58,342 bases of DNA from a phage: the sequence record PZ445426.1, one strand, 5' to 3'. Shown here one piece after another: positions 5,290 through 39,216 of the stretch. The number at the start of each line of letters is the position of its first letter. Position 1 is the first letter of the stretch. The position numbers were made by a program, and so were the translations under genes. The notes beneath the pieces were generated by a model that saw nothing but the letters and a program-made list of their open reading frames with translations, was not told where the DNA came from and searched no databases.

Positions 5290-5613
5290 ATGCGTTATCA
5301 ACGTTATGAACGACATGACTTGATGGAAAAATCGTTGCAGGTGGAGCCAATTTCGATTACTCTCGATCCTGCTACGATTGACACCACAACTTCAGAAGTA
5401 AAAACGGTTACTGTTAAAATAAACTTTGTCCCAGGCGGAACTACAAACAAAGCGTATAGTGCGTCAGTTGACGGTTCCTCTGCTACAATTAAAGACAACG
5501 GGGACGGTACAATTACTGTGACCACAACCGCAAGCAGTGGTACTTCAAACTTGACAGTAACGTCCAAGGCAAAGGATAGTGTTACTGGTACATGTGTTAT
5601 TAATGTGACCTAA
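5290..5613 (+). CDS. Ig-like (Big_2-like) domain protein, possible capsid decoration protein
   Basis: 107 aa; Thr/Ser/Val-rich beta-strand pattern (GDGTITVTTTASSGTSNLTVTSKA) typical of bacterial Ig-like domains; AGGAGA RBS. Confidence 0.45.
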   Translation: MRYQRYERHDLMEKSLQVEPISITLDPATIDTTTSEVKTVTVKINFVPGGTTNKAYSASVDGSSATIKDNGDGTITVTTTASSGTSNLTVTSKAKDSVTGTCVINVT

Positions 5614-5630
5614 AAAATAAGGATTAAACA

Positions 5631-6284
5631 ATGAAGACATTAATTGAAGCATTGTTAGAACTTGATCCGGAGAACCCGAATCATTGGACCAGCGATGGCT
5701 TACCTAAAGTTGATGCTCTGCGTTTCGCTACCGCTAACCCGTCTTTAACCCGCGACGATATTACAACTGCTGCTCCGCTGTTTACCCGCGATAACCGCGT
5801 GCTGGAAGAGCCCGAGCCAGTGGAACCTGTTAAATCTGCTGATCCAGTTTTACATGAATCTGTCAAACAGGAGAAAGCTCATGAAGAACAAAAGAAAGTC
5901 GCGGTTGCAACGATGCAAATCGAAGTTAAGATTAGCGAAGCATTGCGTGCTCTTCTGGAGCCGGAAAAAATCGGTGACACTTCCAGCCTAAGCGATGAAG
6001 AGCTGAAAGCGAAGCGTGAAAAGCTTAGCAATGTGGTTAAAGAGATTGCCCACACTAAGCACGCGCTGGAGCTTGCTATTGCCGACGTTCAAGCGGATCT
6101 GGATAAGATTATCGTTGAGCAGGAAAGTCGTCGTCCTAAGTCCGGTCTTACTGCAACTCAAATGTATCTTGAAGCGCAGAAAAAACGTAAACCTGAAGAC
6201 ATGCTTTCTGACCATCGCTTCCAGAACCCTATTGACGATCCGGTCGCCCGTATGGTTGCACGTAATATGATGCGTCGAGGTTAA
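5631..6284 (+). CDS. hypothetical protein (head module)
   Basis: 217-aa ORF with AAGGA RBS; acidic/coiled-coil-like; no recognisable motif. Confidence 0.45.
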   Translation: MKTLIEALLELDPENPNHWTSDGLPKVDALRFATANPSLTRDDITTAAPLFTRDNRVLEEPEPVEPVKSADPVLHESVKQEKAHEEQKKVAVATMQIEVKISEALRALLEPEKIGDTSSLSDEELKAKREKLSNVVKEIAHTKHALELAIADVQADLDKIIVEQESRRPKSGLTATQMYLEAQKKRKPEDMLSDHRFQNPIDDPVARMVARNMMRRG

Positions 6285-6338
6285 CCATGGAAATGAGCCA
6301 TAGACAATATGTGTTGTGGCTCCTCCGACGTAATAGAA

Positions 6339-6368
6339 AACGGCGTCAAGAAGACGCCGTTTCTGTTC
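6339..6368 (+). terminator. possible weak intrinsic terminator (AACGGCGTC-aagaa-GACGCCGTT + tctgtt)
   Basis: 9-bp stem read directly; poor U-tract. Confidence 0.3.
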
Positions 6369-6422
6369 CTGAAGAAGAGCTCCCGCCGCTTATCCCTACA
6401 ACCATCGCAATGAGGAAGAAAG

Positions 6423-6929
6423 ATGGAGATTTCACTGATAGTTGAAGATGGTACTGGTGTACCGGATGCTAACAGTTATGTGACCATTGAACAAGTCCGC
6501 ATGTATGCCGCAATGCGAGGTATTGTACTTCCAAGTGAAGATGAAGATCTAAAGACAAAGATCTTCGACGCTATGGATTTTGTGGAAGGATACGGTCAAC
6601 GGTTTAAGGGTTACAAAATGGACCCACAGCAACCGCTAAATTGGCCACGCTACGGGGTGTTTGTGGATGGGTTCGAGCTACCCCAAAGCCCTTTACCAAA
6701 GGCGCTTATAAACGCGGTTTGCCAGCTTACAGCGGACTCAGCTACTGGCGGTCCCCTTAATGGGAAAACTACTGCATATGCAGTCAAAAGAACTAAAGTA
6801 GAAGGTCTTGAGATTGAATATGCAACTGGTAGCACAGCACAGTCAGGTCCAGCAAAAACATATGATAAAGCTATGACGTTTTTATCACCTTTGCTGGGTT
6901 ATCAAATGGGTAACAGATTAATACGGTGA
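6423..6929 (+). CDS. putative head-tail connector/adaptor protein
   Basis: 168-aa ORF; first of four short, translationally coupled genes between head and tail genes. Confidence 0.4.
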   Translation: MEISLIVEDGTGVPDANSYVTIEQVRMYAAMRGIVLPSEDEDLKTKIFDAMDFVEGYGQRFKGYKMDPQQPLNWPRYGVFVDGFELPQSPLPKALINAVCQLTADSATGGPLNGKTTAYAVKRTKVEGLEIEYATGSTAQSGPAKTYDKAMTFLSPLLGYQMGNRLIR

Positions 6930-6932
6930 TTT

Positions 6933-7313
6933 ATGAGCTTTCCTTATGAGCAGTTAGTTGAAGCTGCAAAGCAAATGATCAACGACGCTGGCGTGAACTG
7001 TACCCTTGTGGTTATGGAAAAAGGAGAAGGTCAAGATGAGTGGGACGATCCTAGTGTTGAAAAACGCTACCCATTTATCGGAGCTTTTCTTTCTCCGAAG
7101 GAAAAAATGATCGGTGGGAGCCTTGTTGCTACTGGCGAATTGAAAGTCTTAACCTATCCAATGACTCCGCCGCTGACACGTGATAAAGCAATGACTGCAC
7201 GTATTGAGCGCATGTCTCCCGACGGTGAGTTGGAAGTATGGACAATTAACGAGTTCGTTGATACAAGACCTGCTAATGTTTCTGTTCTTTATACTTTCAA
7301 GGTGACGCGATAA
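6933..7313 (+). CDS. putative head-tail joining protein
   Basis: 126-aa ORF; tightly packed with flanking genes. Confidence 0.4.
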   Translation: MSFPYEQLVEAAKQMINDAGVNCTLVVMEKGEGQDEWDDPSVEKRYPFIGAFLSPKEKMIGGSLVATGELKVLTYPMTPPLTRDKAMTARIERMSPDGELEVWTINEFVDTRPANVSVLYTFKVTR

Positions 7314-34150: not shown

Positions 34151-36127
34151 TTAGAAAGGAACGTAATCCGGATCATCTACTTGTACAGGGTTAACCACAT
34201 TGTTCACCGTTATACCTTGCGTATTCTGCGAAACAATATCGTCCCAGCTTACATCATCGTTATAGCTCGGACCTTCTGTTGTTCCATCCTGCCCGTATAC
34301 TTTAATCTGAATAGCTTCGTCGTCCTGTGGAGCTTCAAACTTACCGAAACAAGTACCATCATAATCATAGTTCAATATCTCAGGCCATTTCTTATTGGTA
34401 TGAACTTTGATGTATTTTGGTGTTTTAAGCATTGCAGCAACATCAAGGGCTTCTTCAATAGTTTGTGGTAAAGGTAAATGTGTCCTTTTCTTCCACCATG
34501 CCACCGCTTTACGACCCGCCCAGTCACCATGAAGTAGAGCTACCCATTCGCTGAATATTTTACTACCGCAATAATAAGTCACCTTCATTGTTGGAGGTTT
34601 GGAGCTGTCATTGCGTTTAGTGTGCTTCGCATAAGTAACATGCGTAACTTTAAAGTCTTCAACTACAGGAATGTCCTGCTTGATCAGGGCTTCCGTACTT
34701 GCAGCTTTCTTGAGTTTGGTCTGGAACTTAAACTCATGGCCGCAAAAGCCTTCTTTAACGTAATCCGTCCCGCGTAGCCTAAAACCTTTCAGATATAATT
34801 GTTGAACTTGTTCCTGTGTGACGCTGTCCATTGGGATTGGTGCGAAGCCACCGCAATAGCGAGCGGATGCATGATTATACGACCCACATACATCGCATTC
34901 TTTAACCGGAGCAGTGCCAGCACCTTTTTCGCCCGGGCGCTTGGGTTTAACAGGGTCGTTAATAGGGCCCAAACGGCGCGTATTACCGCTGAAATCCAGT
35001 ACAAGGCAGTTCTGCTTGGGGCTTGCCGCAATAGCTTGTAAGCGTCCCTCCTGCGTGGAAAGATCAAAGCCCTCCGCGTACACCGGACGCGTACCGCGAC
35101 CCAGCATCTGAACCCATAACACCGCCGACGCAGTGGGGCGAAGCATGATAATCAGATCAAGCATTGGATGGTCGAAACCTGTGGTTAAGACGTTGTTGTT
35201 CGTTAACGCACGAAATTCACCGCGCTTGAACTTTTCAATAATCTCGTCACGCTCTTTTGCATCAAGCTTTGAGTGAATACATCCGCAACTAATACCCATA
35301 TCATTCAGCATATCACACGCATCTTTAGCGTGTTCAATACCAGAACAAAATATAAGCCAGCTTTGACGGTCTTCACCACATTCAATGGCTTCCTCAAGTG
35401 CGCGGAGTGTTGCGTCGTCGCGATTTACCGCACTTTGCAGCTCACTTTGAATAAACTCACCACCGCGTTTCCCTACCCCGTTGAGGTCCAACTCCATCTT
35501 TGTACGCTTCGGCACAACCGGAAGCAAATAACCTTGCTCCAGGAACCAGTTAAAGGCTTCAGGGGTAGTTGCATCAAACGTTACTTTATCAAATAAAGCA
35601 TCATCGTCTTCGTTTTCCTTAACAATTGAGCCGTAACCCAGTCGATAAGGTGTAGCGGTAAGACCGATAATTTTTAAATACGGGTTAACTTCACGCAATG
35701 CTGCAAAGAACTTCTTATACATTGTTGCATCACGCGGACTAATAAGGTGCGCTTCATCCACAAAGATTAGATCAACCTTGCCAAACTTTTTAGGATGCTT
35801 AGCAACAGATGCAATCCCCGCAAATGTGATAAGATTATAAACTTCTTTACGCTTCAAACCTGCGCTGTAAATACCTGCTGGCGCTTCAGGCCAGACTTTC
35901 ATTAATTTATCATAGTTTTGCGCAATCAACTCTTTGACGTGAGTTAACATCATTACGCGCTGGTTTGGATACCATTTATAAAGCAGATCGAGGAACCCCG
36001 CGATAACGAGCGATTTTCCTGTCCCTGTTGGTAACAGGATCAAAGGGTTCCCCGCGTTACCCTTTTCAGCATCAAAATAGCGGAATACGCTATAAACTGC
36101 TTCCTGTTGATAATCTCTTAATTTCAT
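34151..36127 (-). CDS. SF2 DEAD/DEAH-box helicase
   Basis: motif I LLPTGTGKS, motif II DEAH, motif III TATP, motif VI QMLGRGTR; C-terminal Cys-rich extension. Confidence 0.8.
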   Translation of the reverse strand: MKLRDYQQEAVYSVFRYFDAEKGNAGNPLILLPTGTGKSLVIAGFLDLLYKWYPNQRVMMLTHVKELIAQNYDKLMKVWPEAPAGIYSAGLKRKEVYNLITFAGIASVAKHPKKFGKVDLIFVDEAHLISPRDATMYKKFFAALREVNPYLKIIGLTATPYRLGYGSIVKENEDDDALFDKVTFDATTPEAFNWFLEQGYLLPVVPKRTKMELDLNGVGKRGGEFIQSELQSAVNRDDATLRALEEAIECGEDRQSWLIFCSGIEHAKDACDMLNDMGISCGCIHSKLDAKERDEIIEKFKRGEFRALTNNNVLTTGFDHPMLDLIIMLRPTASAVLWVQMLGRGTRPVYAEGFDLSTQEGRLQAIAASPKQNCLVLDFSGNTRRLGPINDPVKPKRPGEKGAGTAPVKECDVCGSYNHASARYCGGFAPIPMDSVTQEQVQQLYLKGFRLRGTDYVKEGFCGHEFKFQTKLKKAASTEALIKQDIPVVEDFKVTHVTYAKHTKRNDSSKPPTMKVTYYCGSKIFSEWVALLHGDWAGRKAVAWWKKRTHLPLPQTIEEALDVAAMLKTPKYIKVHTNKKWPEILNYDYDGTCFGKFEAPQDDEAIQIKVYGQDGTTEGPSYNDDVSWDDIVSQNTQGITVNNVVNPVQVDDPDYVPF

Positions 36128-36636
36128 AAAGGTCTCACTGTTCTATGATTCTTGTTAAACCCGTATGTAATTTCAGCCTCTTTTCTTGTCTTTATTGCGT
36201 CTTGTAGACTTTCAAAATAACCAAGATGCAGCCGAATACCGTATACATCAATCTGAGCTTTCCATTTCTTATTTGCCTTAGCCCACGTTACTCCAGGACA
36301 ACCGCTCTTATTATTCGATGGTAGTTTTCTATTATGGTTGTTATGGTATTTATTACTTTTATTTAGATTAGTTTTCCAATTATGCGTACCGTCACCATCA
36401 TCATGATCAATATATTCTGGTTCTTCGTTATAGAGCATTTTCCAGATTATACGATGTGCGTAATAATTAAGACCGTTCATAAAAACCATAATATAGGTTT
36501 TACCATGACTAAAAGTAACTTCACTCCCTGCAATTTGACCGTTATGGTTCCAGAATAAGTTACCGCTATCTTCGCTATAGCTAAAAATCCTATTGAGTTC
36601 TTCTTGCGTCGGTAGCGGCAACCTTTTCATAATCAA
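36124..36636 (-). CDS. HNH homing endonuclease with AP2 DNA-binding domain
   Basis: HRIIW...IDHDDGDGTHN (HNH) followed by GVTWAKANKKWKAQI...LGYFES (AP2-like). Confidence 0.65.
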   Translation of the reverse strand: MIMKRLPLPTQEELNRIFSYSEDSGNLFWNHNGQIAGSEVTFSHGKTYIMVFMNGLNYYAHRIIWKMLYNEEPEYIDHDDGDGTHNWKTNLNKSNKYHNNHNRKLPSNNKSGCPGVTWAKANKKWKAQIDVYGIRLHLGYFESLQDAIKTRKEAEITYGFNKNHRTVRPL

Positions 36637-37541
36637 TCTTTCCCGTAATAATTAGCTACTTGATAGTTTTGACAACCAACTTTCTGTCCTTGCGTATCCA
36701 CTGAGGCGGAATGGAAATTGCAATACCATGTTCCATCTTCTTTTGGTTCAAGGAATTGACATGTGCGGCAGTTTACTTCCGGCATAGTTTTACGCCAGCA
36801 TAGTGAGGAGTGATCGCACCATTTACATTCGAAGAAAGTGGAATCTTTAAACGCGCGGTCCGGAATATCTGTAGCAATAGCAATCTGCACACCACGATCA
36901 ATATACATGTCCGCGGTAACAGGATCAAACGGAATAATTTCTGCGTAAACTTCATCGTCATTCTTGTTTACAGCAAGATATAACGCTGCGCCAAGACCTA
37001 GTTTTCGCATGTACACGTTCATCTGTACATAGTGCTCAGGTTTGGCTTCTTTGACACCTTTAGCTTTCAGCTTTTTAAAAGACTTATCGTTATGGGTTTT
37101 CATTTCGGTAAGCACAGGCATCCCAGGCTGCACGTCCGGACAACCTATAACCACACCATCGCAGGAACCGCCAAAGTGTCCGCCAGCTTCGCTGATACGG
37201 AACTGGTGTCCGTTTTCATCCTGCTGGTAGACCTGCATACCTGCCGCAAGAAGCATAGCAATAAAGCGCGCTTCTTCCAGATGTCCGCGGTTAAACAGTC
37301 GAAGCTGGCGTCCGTCAAACTCTTTGCGTGTAGCCCAGCGATATCCATAGAAAAGCTTTCGTGCGCATTGTTGACCAATAAGGGAAGCGCCTAAGTGACT
37401 GCGGTTACCGCTTTCAGGACGATAAGCGTCTTCAATTGTGGGAATAACTACGCCAAGATACTTACGGTAAGTCCCACCCTGATCTTTTTGCACACCATCA
37501 TTGATCGCTTGAAGTGTTTTTTCTGCAATATAAATAGCCAT
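36633..37541 (-). CDS. PD-(D/E)xK nuclease (Cas4/RecB-like exonuclease) with C-terminal Cys cluster
   Basis: D...EMK core, QMNVY motif, four C-terminal cysteines (CKWCDHSSLC...CRTC) consistent with an Fe-S cluster. Confidence 0.55.
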   Translation of the reverse strand: MAIYIAEKTLQAINDGVQKDQGGTYRKYLGVVIPTIEDAYRPESGNRSHLGASLIGQQCARKLFYGYRWATRKEFDGRQLRLFNRGHLEEARFIAMLLAAGMQVYQQDENGHQFRISEAGGHFGGSCDGVVIGCPDVQPGMPVLTEMKTHNDKSFKKLKAKGVKEAKPEHYVQMNVYMRKLGLGAALYLAVNKNDDEVYAEIIPFDPVTADMYIDRGVQIAIATDIPDRAFKDSTFFECKWCDHSSLCWRKTMPEVNCRTCQFLEPKEDGTWYCNFHSASVDTQGQKVGCQNYQVANYYGKD

Positions 37542-37606
37542 TGGAATACCTTAGAAAAATAAGCCGTCTTTCGACGGCTTATGGACACTACAGAGGGAGG
37601 GTTAAC

Positions 37607-38488
37607 TTACTGCTGCCACGGCGGGACTGCTGCTTGTGCCGGATGCGGTTCAGCTTGCTGCTGAGGCTGAGCTTGCTGCTGAGGTGCTGCTGCCTGGCCT
37701 GGCTGTGCTACCTGCTGCGCCCACGGCTGCTGAGCTGCTTCCGGTGCTACTGGCTGTTGTACCGGAGCTTGCTGCACTGGCTGCTGTGGTGCTGCATTTT
37801 GAGCAGGATTATCCCACGGCTGCGGTGCGGCGTTCTGCCACGGTTGAGCTGCTGCGCCCTGCTGCGGTGCTGGTTGCTGCACAGGCTGCTGAACTGGCTG
37901 CTGTTGCTGCACCGGAGCTTGCTGCTGTACAGGTGCTTGCTGTTGCTGAGCAAACGGGTTAGCTGCTGGTTGCCGAGGTGCTGCGCCCGGGAAAGCTGGC
38001 TGCTGTGCTGGAGCACCTGCACCAAACGGGTTAGCTACTGCTGGAGCACCCATTGATGAAGCCTCTGCTGCTTTTTCTGCATATTTAACCGGATCGTTGA
38101 TGTTAGCGTAACCGTTAGGCTCGTTGCTGTCTTCATAACCTTCCTGAGAACGAACTTTCAGACGCAGGTTCAGCGGAATGTTATGCAGCTGAGCAGGGGT
38201 ATCCCAGCGAATTACACCAACCGCATGGGACAGAGCACCCAGTTGCTCGTAAGCGATGCGTACAGTATCTTCGTTGTCGTTAATGACGTTATAACGAGCA
38301 AAGATTTTACGCCCTTTAGCAAAACCGTCAATGATGCTAAACGTTACCTGGATCGCCATACCGCCGTTTTTGGTCGGTTTAAATTCAGATGCTTCAATTA
38401 CTGCTTTATACCAACCTTTCGGCAATGCGCCGTAAGAAGGTGCTTGATAGCTGCTCGCGTCAAAGTGGAAATTAGTTGGCATAGTCAT
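37607..38488 (-). CDS. putative ssDNA-binding protein with long Gln/Pro/Ala-rich low-complexity tail
   Basis: about 140-aa globular N-terminus then about 150 aa of PVQQ/AQQ repeats; directly downstream of Sak4-like ATPase. Confidence 0.45.
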   Translation of the reverse strand: MTMPTNFHFDASSYQAPSYGALPKGWYKAVIEASEFKPTKNGGMAIQVTFSIIDGFAKGRKIFARYNVINDNEDTVRIAYEQLGALSHAVGVIRWDTPAQLHNIPLNLRLKVRSQEGYEDSNEPNGYANINDPVKYAEKAAEASSMGAPAVANPFGAGAPAQQPAFPGAAPRQPAANPFAQQQQAPVQQQAPVQQQQPVQQPVQQPAPQQGAAAQPWQNAAPQPWDNPAQNAAPQQPVQQAPVQQPVAPEAAQQPWAQQVAQPGQAAAPQQQAQPQQQAEPHPAQAAVPPWQQ

Positions 38489-39216
38489 TAGTTGATACCT
38501 TTCATTTTGTTGATAACAGAACCTAAGTGTGGGACTTCAACCGCATCTAAACGTCCCGAACGATCCTTAGCGATTGTATTAAAGTCCGGTTGAGTTTGCA
38601 AGTAACGATACGAGTTACCTTGCTGATCCTTATTTACATTCAGACGAAATACTTCGTCGAAGAAATAAGGGAGCATTTGCCCCAATTTGGACCCAGGCAT
38701 TGATGGAGCATACGCGGTAACACCGGAGACTTCATCTTTGTCTTTGCCCATTTTAGCAGACATATAAACATGTTTGCCAGGAATATCGCGAAACTTACGG
38801 ATTAGATCTTGCATCTTTTCAAGCAAAGTACCATAAGCTTGACGAGGATCTTTCGTTCCCTTTTTCGCGTTGTTTAAACATTGTTCAGCAATTTCGCTCA
38901 AGCTGTCAAGCGCAATAGAATCGAAATACTGCTGGTTAGCTGGAGTTACGCACCACTGATAAGCCGCTTCAACGTCTTCCAGACATTTCACTTCAATTAC
39001 CGGAATATCGTAAACGATGGGTAAACCCATGTTACCATAAACACGGTTAAGGTTTTCCGCTGCAATAGACAACAGACCGGATTCTGCGCTGATTAAAATT
39101 GGTTTAGGTAATGTGGCTACAAGGCTGGTTTTACCCATACCCGCTTCACCGTAAACCAGAATTTTAACACCTGTGTCCTGCACAACTTGTGAAGACATTT
39201 TAATTTCAATGGCCAT
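38488..39216 (-). CDS. Sak4-like RecA-fold ATPase
   Basis: Walker A YGEAGMGKTS near N-terminus; 242 aa; paired with SSB-like gene. Confidence 0.6.
   Translation of the reverse strand: MAIEIKMSSQVVQDTGVKILVYGEAGMGKTSLVATLPKPILISAESGLLSIAAENLNRVYGNMGLPIVYDIPVIEVKCLEDVEAAYQWCVTPANQQYFDSIALDSLSEIAEQCLNNAKKGTKDPRQAYGTLLEKMQDLIRKFRDIPGKHVYMSAKMGKDKDEVSGVTAYAPSMPGSKLGQMLPYFFDEVFRLNVNKDQQGNSYRYLQTQPDFNTIAKDRSGRLDAVEVPHLGSVINKMKGIN

Follow-up and report, generated by a model that had tools for sequence, protein, structure and literature searches.

What kind of protein is encoded at 37607..38488 on the minus strand, where the C-terminal half of the product is built mostly from Gln, Pro, and Ala, and what is such a tail for? 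The gene lies in a phage sequence of 58,342 nucleotides (record PZ445426.1; this whole stretch is called the window here), which was identified as a Seuratvirus with ~98% nucleotide identity to phage Seurat. The Seurat orthologue, gp48, is annotated as a "hypothetical protein." We read the frame as coding for a DUF669-type phage ssDNA-binding protein (SSB). In the explanation that we consider probable, the gene encodes the phage's own SSB, with a noncanonical OB fold that would bind ssDNA, and this core is followed by a disordered linker and a conserved docking tip, the partner of which is plausibly a Sak4-like protein. The gene and its surroundings comprised the following features:

37607..38488, minus strand: whole coding sequence of the SSB candidate, 293 aa plus stop, orthologue of Seurat gp48
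38072..38488, minus strand: N-terminal folded domain, residues 1-139, predicted as an OB-like barrel (strands 1-3, helix, strands 4-5)
37610..38071, minus strand: Q/A/P-rich disordered tail, residues 140-293, defined by composition and low pLDDT
38488..39216, minus strand: upstream gene for a Sak4-like AAA_24 ATPase of 242 aa, its stop overlapping the start of the SSB candidate
37559..37582, minus strand: terminator-like hairpin from a consensus scan, a 10-bp stem followed by TTTTT, 25 nt past the stop of the SSB candidate

The ATG of the SSB candidate and the stop of the upstream gene shared the sequence TAATG, and phage SA126VB carries a rho-independent terminator annotation at the site equivalent to the hairpin.

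The N-terminal domain matched Pfam DUF669 (PF05037) with a score of 52.5 bits, above the cut-off of 21 (E = 7.5e-14), residues 8-131 aligning to positions 2-126 of the 138-position profile. This was the only Pfam family assigned to the SSB candidate, and PF00436, the canonical bacterial SSB profile, gave no match. PHROGs 6015, 378, and 7778, all annotated "SSB," matched as well. In the AF2 model, residues 21-140 had pLDDT values of 90-98 and formed strands at 25-38, 44-52, and 61-69, a helix at 73-90, and strands at 106-113 and 121-129, which is the five-stranded beta-barrel with a helix between strands 3 and 4 of an OB fold. Among viral predicted structures, 116 matched the SSB candidate at E <= 0.001, many of them named DUF669 and one named SSB. 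The original prediction of an "SSB-like" protein is thus supported by the Pfam family, the PHROG families, and the modeled fold.

The predicted core was structurally similar to solved SSBs, while a PDB sequence search with the SSB candidate gave no match at E <= 10. The closest solved structure, at 10-12% identity, was PrgE of plasmid pCF10 (PDB 8S4S/8S4T), a nontypical OB-fold DNA-binding protein that binds both dsDNA and ssDNA and forms filaments (PMC11137577); it differs in having 144 aa without a long tail and in polymerizing via its N-terminal tail. DUF669 phage proteins have been proposed as noncanonical OB-fold SSBs, have been linked to the N4 SSB, and occur in phages without other SSBs (Kazlauskas et al. 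2016, PMC4889955). The SSB candidate resembled them in its N-terminal domain above the family cut-off, its OB-like predicted fold, and the lack of any other recognizable phage SSB, since a Pfam scan and a tblastn search with E. coli SSB detected no canonical SSB elsewhere in the window. However, DUF669 proteins are described with acidic C-terminal tails (PMC4889955), whereas in the clade of the SSB candidate the tail is long, rich in Q/A/P, nearly devoid of charge, and tipped by PPW. Our literature search found no paper on this protein and none that dealt with an SSB from Seuratvirus or Queuovirinae phages, with the BASEL locus tags, or with a PPW tip; the DRT10 preprint deals with another phage protein, Bas52_0087, whose tip is the classical FDDDIPF.

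The tail contained 46 Gln, 40 Ala, and 31 Pro among its 154 residues (76% over residues 140-293), as had been noted from the sequence, and just five charged residues. Its aromatic residues were four Trp and three Phe (F155, F166, F179, W217, W225, W256, and W291). With low AlphaFold confidence as the proxy for disorder, the tail was predicted to be disordered, also as originally proposed: pLDDT was <= ~56 through residue 280, compared with 90-98 in the core, and reached ~65 only at the tip, and the tail model had no secondary structure except one helical turn at the tip. A family-profile search of the PDB returned only the ZipA linker (E = 9.7e-5 over the tail), a low-complexity match with a high bias score. 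The P/Q-rich region of ZipA, a flexible tether, has a similar P/Q/A-rich composition and is a compositional analogue without homology. The tail was divided into the following segments:

37856..37972, minus strand: length-variable proximal spacer, residues 173-211, with most in-frame indels of 23 Seuratvirus genomes
37874..37936, minus strand: degenerate (A)PVQQ(Q) repeats, core residues 185-205, inside the proximal spacer
37781..37855, minus strand: motif island 1, residues 212-236, AAAQPWQNAAPQPWDNPAQNAAPQQ, with two QPW motifs
37655..37732, minus strand: motif island 2, residues 253-278, QQPWAQQVAQPGQAAAPQQQAQPQQQ, with the third QPW motif
37610..37654, minus strand: C-terminal tip, residues 279-293, AEPHPAQAAVPPWQQ, with the PPW motif at nt 37616..37624

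The strongest signal in the tail was the conservation of its end. A word-indexed homologue search with the N-terminal domain alone returned one protein, and a full-length query found more but favors similar tails; because of this bias, conservation of the tip was assessed with an exhaustive HMMER search that used the N-terminal domain only and gave 5137 cluster representatives, of which the best 150 were examined. A Trp lay 1-11 residues from the C-terminus in 145 of these best 150 of 5137 representatives, and the two residues preceding it were Pro in 131 and 128, respectively, of the 145. The consensus of the tip in the same best 150 of 5137 was A-Q-x-A-[TV]-P-P-W-[AMQ]-[QRK]. In a set of 120 homologues, W291 was invariant and P289 and P290 were >= 90% conserved, and the last 11 residues of the tip were identical in 23/23 Seuratvirus genomes. 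No other protein of the window ended in PPW. The tails themselves were also alike in kind: among the best 150 homologue clusters of 5137, they had a median length of 139 residues, a pooled composition of 24% Ala, 21% Pro, and 19% Gln, a median of 3.5% charged residues, and nearly always 1-6 Trp.

Conservation extended to the internal motifs. Motif island 1 was invariant in 23/23 genomes although synonymous divergence was ~0.16, and it was recognizable in relatives at 63-87% N-domain identity; motif island 2 was nearly invariant within the genus and was conserved in more distant relatives. QPW was the second commonest Trp context in homologue tails, with 130 occurrences in 97 of 131 tails. Two NPF motifs (residues 152-156 and 176-180) were examined as a possible conserved ligand and rejected, as they were genus specific and NPF was present in only 5/131 homologue tails. 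Because conservation of the terminal motif reaches far past the genus, a partner-recruiting tail, one of the roles first suggested for it, is the best reading.

The three-part layout is that of E. coli-type SSB, in which a Q/P-rich low-complexity linker, poorly conserved in sequence, also separates the core from a highly conserved tip, and the cores are weakly similar in structure. The differences lie in the linker and the tip. The E. coli linker has 56 residues and is Gly-rich, whereas that of the SSB candidate has ~140 (~2.5 times longer) and is Ala-rich; the E. coli tip is acidic (MDFDDDIPF; DDDIPF-COOH), whereas that of the SSB candidate is uncharged, with Pro-Pro-Trp short of the chain end. 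A classical SSB-Ct, with an Asp/Glu run and a C-terminal aromatic residue, was absent from the SSB candidate, which had one acidic residue among its last 15 and in which QQ followed the Trp at the C-terminal end. Among homologues, the last 15 residues most often had a net charge of 0, and classical acidic ends of the ...PPFE or ...DLPF type were found in only 2 of the best 150 of 5137 representatives. Given this different tip chemistry, the tip probably does not use the host pockets that bind SSB tips.

A candidate partner was suggested by gene order. The upstream ATPase matched Pfam AAA_24 (E = 1.2e-27) and PHROG 124, "Sak4-like ssDNA annealing protein" (E = 1.7e-59), and the order AAA_24 then DUF669 was retained in 4/4 distant homologue contigs. 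The order sak4 then ssb is also found in HK620 and N4, where HkaK and gp45 (with gp44), respectively, are likewise encoded directly downstream of a Sak4-like ATPase gene, and the SSBs of both phages likewise consist of a core, a tail, and a proline-aromatic end. In HK620, the SSB stimulates annealing by Sak4, which requires the six C-terminal residues of the SSB, NDYPPF, in order to bind ssDNA that the SSB has coated (Hutinet et al. 2018, PMC5928155). However, HK620-type tails are short and acidic (median net charge of -3 over the last 15 residues) with a C-terminal Phe, whereas the tail of the SSB candidate has ~150 residues and is neutral, its aromatic residue is Trp, and in its homologues 1-11 residues follow the Trp. 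Because HK620-type tips are acidic with a terminal Phe, the precedent for Sak4 docking transfers by analogy only.

The SSB candidate is not placed in the HK620/N4 SSB family here, as similarity by BLASTP, hhalign, Pfam, and PHROG was either nonsignificant or too weak to decide. The SSB candidate had no match to phrog_743, which HkaK and N4 gp45 matched at 1e-65 and 5e-77; BLASTP of the SSB candidate against the HK620 and N4 SSBs was not significant; and HkaK had no match to Pfam DUF669 at E <= 0.01. Profile-profile comparison (hhalign) with the HK620 and N4 SSBs, run both against single sequences and between family alignments, gave probabilities of 2-12%, and comparison of the two family alignments gave 12% with an E value of 0.0024 over 66 topologically sensible columns. 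Remote homology to N4/HK620-type SSBs has been reported in the literature by HHsearch, and NCBI names relatives of HkaK "DUF669 domain-containing."

In the mechanism that we propose, the OB core (residues 1-139) would coat ssDNA, the disordered Q/A/P-rich linker of ~140 residues with its three QPW motifs would serve as a flexible spacer, and the conserved tip, ...HPAQAAVPPWQQ, would act as a docking peptide for partner proteins. The partner would most likely be the Sak4-like annealing ATPase encoded directly upstream, and other possible binders are the members of the conserved module of RNase H, ligase, Sak4, SSB, Cas4-type exonuclease (36633..37541), and helicase (an SF2 helicase at 34151..36127). 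The CAG/CTG-rich DNA would be a by-product of the amino acid composition, and its degenerate repeats would from time to time allow spacer units to be gained or lost in frame, with the motifs kept fixed by selection. A bolder version, which we put forward tentatively, is that the [TV]PPW tip and the internal QPW motifs form a previously undescribed nonacidic SSB "address code" that recruits the phage Sak4-like ATPase, exonuclease, and helicase and that may be used by a large clade of DUF669-SSB phages, the Queuovirinae and their relatives on many hosts. If so, the code would be orthogonal to the acidic tip of the host, and the phage SSB would neither compete with the host SSB interactome nor be hijacked by it; defenses that read SSB tips might be escaped.

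SSB tips are hubs on which replication, repair, and recombination machines are assembled, and to our knowledge essentially all well-studied SSB tips are acidic peptides with a C-terminal Phe. A widespread phage clade that kept the core-linker-tip layout, but in which a very long Q/P/A linker carried a neutral Pro-Pro-Trp as its tip, would amount to a natural experiment in hub re-addressing. The assignment would also give a function to a "hypothetical protein" found in all Seurat/9g-type phages, some of which belong to the BASEL collection, and would name a likely cofactor for recombineering with the Sak4-type recombinases of these phages. Furthermore, because phage SSBs are recurrent triggers of bacterial defense systems, knowing the Queuovirinae SSB and its tail helps in interpreting escape mutants. 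If none of this reading holds, the protein would be an ordinary SSB with a long linker.

The conserved aromatic residues could instead be read as "stickers" separated by Q/P/A spacers, so that the tail would be a condensate scaffold whose motifs are conserved for self-association rather than for partner docking. The seven aromatics in an otherwise uncharged low-complexity tail fit such a role, as does the near-universal presence of Trp in homologue tails, and condensates of E. coli SSB are described as dependent on the disordered linker and the C-terminal peptide (PMC7584906, PMC12143593, and PMC11947617). Against this, the terminal [TV]PPW is conserved both in sequence and in its distance from the chain end, a pattern typically seen in specific docking peptides rather than in generic stickers, and natural deletions of 18-32 residues are tolerated. 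Condensation, which the original prediction had raised, is a possibility by analogy with E. coli SSB and is compatible with the docking explanation, but as the main function of the tail we consider it unlikely.

We regard as improbable a further reading of the Trp motifs, namely, that they act within or between SSB molecules, either docking on the OB core and regulating DNA binding or linking protomers into cooperative filaments. The tails of T4 gp32, T7 gp2.5, and E. coli SSB regulate DNA binding, and the slightly raised pLDDT of the tip (56-65) and its helical turn are in keeping with an intramolecular or intermolecular contact. PrgE polymerizes on DNA via a terminal tail that touches its neighbor, and, according to a preprint (bioRxiv 10.1101/2022.01.17.476650), long-range cooperativity of E. 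coli SSB depends on its linker. However, the tail of the SSB candidate is not acidic and therefore cannot mimic DNA electrostatically, and the contact in PrgE is made by the N-terminal tail, not the C-terminal one.

The repeat-rich DNA raised the separate question of whether the tail is shaped by its nucleotide sequence. The DNA at 37620..37990, which had been described as dominated by GCTGCTG/CTGCTGC units, was compared with the rest of the window after counts were scaled to equal length. Enrichment was strong for CTG (45 versus 6.3), GCTGCTG (10 versus 0.12), and CTGCTGC (5 versus 0.11), and GC content was 0.63 versus ~0.43, but "dominated" overstated the case: two or more tandem CTG/GCT/TGC units covered just 134 of the 371 bases, and the longest pure triplet run was 9 nt. 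TRF found only weak degenerate arrays, at 37870-37946, with periods of 24, 12, and 18, 2.0-2.8 copies, and 76-81% matches. The CAG:CAA ratio was 33:13 in the tail versus 23:22 in a reference of the N-terminal domain and three neighboring genes, and CAGCAG occurred 17 times in the tail versus 13.1 +/- 1.9 in synonymous-codon shuffles. The CTG/CAG enrichment is mostly a result of amino acid composition, plus a mild codon preference. A functional DNA element held by nucleotide constraint, for instance, an origin or a structured repeat, was rejected, as synonymous divergence in the tail (0.16) equaled that of the N-terminal domain and the TRF arrays were weak.

As originally expected, the tail was not invariant in length. 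Eight length alleles, spanning 834-888 nt, were found among 33 phage records, corresponding to 277-295 aa, and metagenomes added a 262-aa allele. At least eight indel events were counted, every one of them in frame and within the tail, mostly in the proximal spacer; such confinement has a P value of ~0.006 under a uniform spread along the gene. Indels in the proximal block (residues ~173-211) were gains or losses of 1, 4, or 6 codons; in addition, there was one 18-codon deletion at residues 235-252 and, in metagenomic allele P0005, a 32-residue deletion between QQPA repeats. The indels either comprised whole repeat units or were flanked by short direct repeats, for example, CAGCAGCC and QQPA. 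Between relatives, too, indels accumulated in the linker and not in the core.

Sequence constraint was nonetheless high: pN/pS was 0.02-0.05 over the repeat block and distal tail, and purifying selection on the distal tail (0.020 versus 0.035 in the N-terminal domain) is no weaker than on the folded domain. As synonymous divergence was equal in the two regions (~0.16), the constraint acts at the protein level, with none extra on the DNA. Neutral junk expansion of the tail was rejected on the pN/pS values and on the retention of the motifs across clusters at <= 50% identity.

The number of length alleles, the restriction of indels to the tail, and their coincidence with repeat units would suit a slippage-driven, hypervariable or contingency tract that allows fast adaptive length change, for example, in escape from SSB-sensing host defenses. 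We judge this highly improbable. Pure repeats did not exceed 9 nt, TRF arrays did not exceed 2.8 copies at 76-81%, all 23 alleles of the 23 genomes were in frame with no frameshift, and length varied only from 277 to 295 aa in the phage records; the low pN/pS and the invariance of the motif islands and the tip also argue against it, and the truncated allele P0001 is known from a single short contig. Of the predicted slippage hotspot, the variation in length therefore stands, whereas a microsatellite is absent, the changes are small and in frame, and the distal tail is strongly constrained. A role of the Q/P-rich tail as a transcription-activation region, which would contact host RNA polymerase and thereby switch on the late promoters of the phage by analogy with the N4 SSB, is scarcely credible: in N4, late transcription is activated by the SSB via RNA polymerase, and DUF669 has been linked to that protein, but the SSB candidate does not match the N4 SSB family, the N4 SSB tail is short and G/A/P with the ending SLFGKK, and nothing in the window bears on the idea.

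The composition of the tail also leaves a mark on the opposite strand:

37541..38056, plus strand: antisense ORF of 171 aa, Leu/Cys/Arg-rich, an open frame codon-aligned antisense to the SSB-candidate gene

This frame had been called spurious, and its evolution bears this out: it was rejected as a real gene because its pN/pS was 1.42 versus 0.044 in the sense frame. It is created by the CAG/GCA-rich sense codons and stays open in relatives through composition alone.

The window is the genome of a Seuratvirus, an E. coli siphophage of the Queuovirinae, and its 882-nt predicted SSB region was 98% identical to phage Seurat and 93 to 97% identical to 31 other records. The gene, an orthologue of Seurat gp48, is a "hypothetical protein" in phage records, with nothing further than a "DUF699" domain note, presumably meaning DUF669, in the RefSeq entry for CAjan. 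Its start codon and the stop codon of the gene before it overlap (TAATG), and the site equivalent to the hairpin past its stop is annotated as a terminator in phage SA126VB.

Features of the predicted SSB gene region
34151..36127, minus strand: SF2 helicase gene (658 aa), downstream of the SSB gene
36124..36636, minus strand: HNH endonuclease ORF (170 aa; phrog_99, E 8e-53), between the exonuclease and helicase genes
36633..37541: Cas4-type exonuclease gene, downstream of the SSB gene
37541..38056, plus strand: antisense ORF, codon-aligned to the SSB gene; spurious
37559..37582, minus strand: terminator-like hairpin (10-bp stem, then T5), 25 nt past the SSB stop
37607..38488, minus strand: predicted SSB gene, 293-aa ORF
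38488..39216, minus strand: Sak4-like AAA_24 ATPase gene, directly upstream of the SSB gene

The original prediction of an SSB-like protein was supported by a Pfam DUF669 match at residues 8 to 131 (52.5 bits; cut-off, 21), by matches to PHROGs 6015, 378, and 7778, annotated "single strand DNA binding protein," and by an OB-like model; PHROG 13350 matched end to end. In the AlphaFold2 model, built with 120 homologues as input, residues 21 to 140 had pLDDT values of 90 to 98 and the core had an OB-like topology of three strands, a helix, and two strands. A viral structure library yielded 116 models at E <= 0.001, many named DUF669 and one named SSB. No canonical SSB was found in the window by Pfam, and tblastn with E. 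coli SSB gave a best E-value of 0.4. This agrees with the proposal of Kazlauskas et al. that DUF669 proteins, which they linked to the N4 SSB, are the SSBs of phages without known ones (PMC4889955). The product, itself uncharacterised, belongs to a known family and has a known architecture.

The tail (residues 140 to 293) is, as predicted, dominated by Gln, Ala, and Pro (46, 40, and 31 of 154 residues; 76%), with four Trp, three Phe, and just five charged residues. A full-length search recovered 379 homologues, nearly all with long Q/A/P tails, but was biased by tail words; an exhaustive HMMER search with the N-terminal domain alone, an unbiased test, gave 5137 cluster representatives at E <= 1e-3. 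Among the best 150 of these (core identity, 37 to 100%), the tail had a median length of 139 residues, a pooled composition of 24% A, 21% P, and 19% Q, and a median of 3.5% charged residues. A Trp lay 1 to 11 residues (median, 5) from the C-terminus in 145 of the best 150, preceded by Pro at -2 in 131 and at -1 in 128 of the 145, and a classical acidic end (DDVPPFE, DDDSDLPF) occurred in only 2. The tip consensus in this set was A-Q-x-A-[TV]-P-P-W-[AMQ]-[QRK]; in a 120-sequence alignment, W291 was invariant and P289 and P290 were at least 90% conserved. QPW was the second recurrent Trp context in homologue tails (130 occurrences). Between genera, gaps were 18 to 43 in the tail spacers versus 2 to 8 in the core, with the QPW islands and the ...HPAQAAVPPW tip still recognisable. 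Gap-rich spacers with kept motifs are the hallmark of a disordered linker that bears short linear motifs, which agrees with the low pLDDT of the AlphaFold model (up to about 56 at residues 141 to 280; 56 to 65 at the tip, which forms a helical turn).

A partner-recruiting tail, as originally suggested, is therefore the best-supported model, with the conserved C-terminal tip as the predicted docking peptide in a standard SSB design of OB core, flexible linker, and partner-docking tip. Architecture, predicted disorder, conservation, selection pattern, and synteny are its observed steps; the core would coat ssDNA, and the linker would project the tip to dock partner proteins. Gene position and the HK620 precedent make the Sak4-like ATPase the leading candidate partner, with the exonuclease, helicase, or replisome proteins as alternatives. 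Further upstream lies a ligase gene and, in Seurat, also RNase H; the order RNase H, ligase, AAA_24, DUF669, 300-aa protein, and DEAD helicase was repeated in all four distant homologue contigs. The sak4-then-ssb order also occurs in HK620 and in N4 (5521..7119; Sak4-like gp44, then SSB gp45). In HK620, Hutinet et al. showed that the sak4 neighbour is a true SSB that boosts both annealing and recombineering by Sak4, and that Sak4 cannot bind SSB-coated ssDNA unless the six C-terminal residues of the SSB, NDYPPF, are present (PMC5928155). The HNH ORF, probably the insertion of a mobile homing endonuclease, has no counterpart in Seurat, where the helicase directly follows the exonuclease. The SF2 helicase matches in size and genus "Heli22" of Bas22, reported in 2025 to trigger Retron-Eco11 toxicity (PMC12746101).

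The HK620 and N4 SSBs are treated here as functional analogues that may be remotely homologous, rather than as members of the same family, because homology was not reproduced: the product did not match phrog_743, which holds both SSBs; BLASTP against them was not significant; and hhalign gave 2 to 12% probability, although 66 aligned columns in one comparison were topologically sensible. HkaK, the HK620 SSB, did not match Pfam DUF669 at E <= 0.01, whereas its relatives carry the DUF669 label at NCBI. HK620-type relatives have the acidic end ...[DE]xx[PT]F-COOH (median charge, -3 over the last 15 residues), and DUF669 tails are described as acidic (PMC4889955); those of the present clade are not. 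Because the tip is neutral, Trp-using, and followed by further residues, we infer that it addresses a pocket other than the classical SSB-tip pocket and is perhaps orthogonal to the interactome of the host SSB. In the N4 SSB, a short G/A/P stretch leads into a terminal SLFGKK, whose aromatic residue stands four positions from the basic C-terminus; the PPW[KR] ends seen in some homologues are similar. A literature search found no paper on the gene product, a Queuovirinae SSB, or the PPW tip. A disordered tail on a phage SSB is unsurprising; the new element is the widespread non-acidic variant, PPW-tipped and Q/A/P-linked, and the conserved alternative tip is a concrete, cheaply testable lead.

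By analogy with E. coli SSB, the tail could plausibly scaffold condensates through aromatic stickers, which is compatible with partner docking. Possibly, the Trp motifs instead dock on the core, within or between molecules, for autoregulation or cooperativity.

Within the genus, all 23 alleles (the window and 22 further genomes) were in frame, at 834 to 888 nt, and ended in an identical PAQAAVPPWQQ. Indels were absent from the 139-residue core and numbered at least eight in the tail (binomial P ~0.006): single Q, A, or V codons, 4-codon (QQPV) and 6-codon (APVQQQ) units in the degenerate PVQQ block, and, in phage Greed, an 18-codon deletion flanked by CAGCAGCC repeats; a metagenomic allele lacked 32 residues between QQPA repeats. 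The predicted length variation thus does occur, through repeat-mediated events; it is modest, mostly at residues 173 to 211 plus one deletion at 235 to 252. A contingency locus is nevertheless disfavoured: the repeats are short and interrupted, changes are in frame only, and purifying selection is strong. With pS nearly constant along the gene (0.14 to 0.19), which argues against an extra DNA-level function of the tail, pN/pS was 0.035 in the core, 0.05 in the PVQQ block, and 0.020 in the distal tail, so the distal tail is no less constrained than the folded core. The value of 0.20 in the proximal linker (alignment columns 136 to 185) reflects two linker-start haplotypes at residues 140 to 150 (38039..38071, minus strand), AAEA(P/S)SMGA-PAV and EAGAPAMGAQAAV; these do not follow the downstream indel alleles, a pattern hinting at intragenic recombination. 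Transcription activation, as by the N4 SSB, found no support here, and neutral junk is excluded.

The proximal tail has two ANPF(G/A) motifs (37949..37963 and 38021..38035, minus strand), which are invariant in Seuratvirus and genus-specific, since NPF occurred in just 5 of 131 homologue tails. The metagenomic allele P0001 (160 aa), from one 3.4-kb contig, has a 99% identical core followed by ...AVANRSEERR and a stop. The frameshift that this indicates, close to the start of the tail, may be an error of assembly, or the allele may be a rare variant that naturally lacks the tail.

The predicted CAG/CTG richness held as enrichment, not as a clean repeat. On the plus strand, 37620..37990 contained 45 CTG and 10 GCTGCTG, where the rest of the window would give 6.3 and 0.12, at a GC content of 0.63 versus ~0.43. 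Pure triplet runs reached 9 nt at most, only 134 of 371 bases lay within two or more tandem units, and TRF found only degenerate arrays (periods 24, 12, and 18; up to 2.8 copies; 76 to 81% matches). The enrichment comes mostly from composition, as shuffling synonymous codons showed (CAGCAG in shuffles, 13.1 +/- 1.9; observed, 17). The antisense ORF proved as spurious as supposed, with pN/pS of 1.42 over the tail columns versus 0.044 in the sense frame. In CAjan-type alleles (885 to 888 nt), the codon-aligned antisense frame is stop-free over the whole gene (294 to 296 codons); the pN/pS of 1.4 over the tail columns argues against a real antisense gene. An antisense stop arises only opposite TTA, CTA, or TCA, so the sense strand of these alleles should lack those codons.
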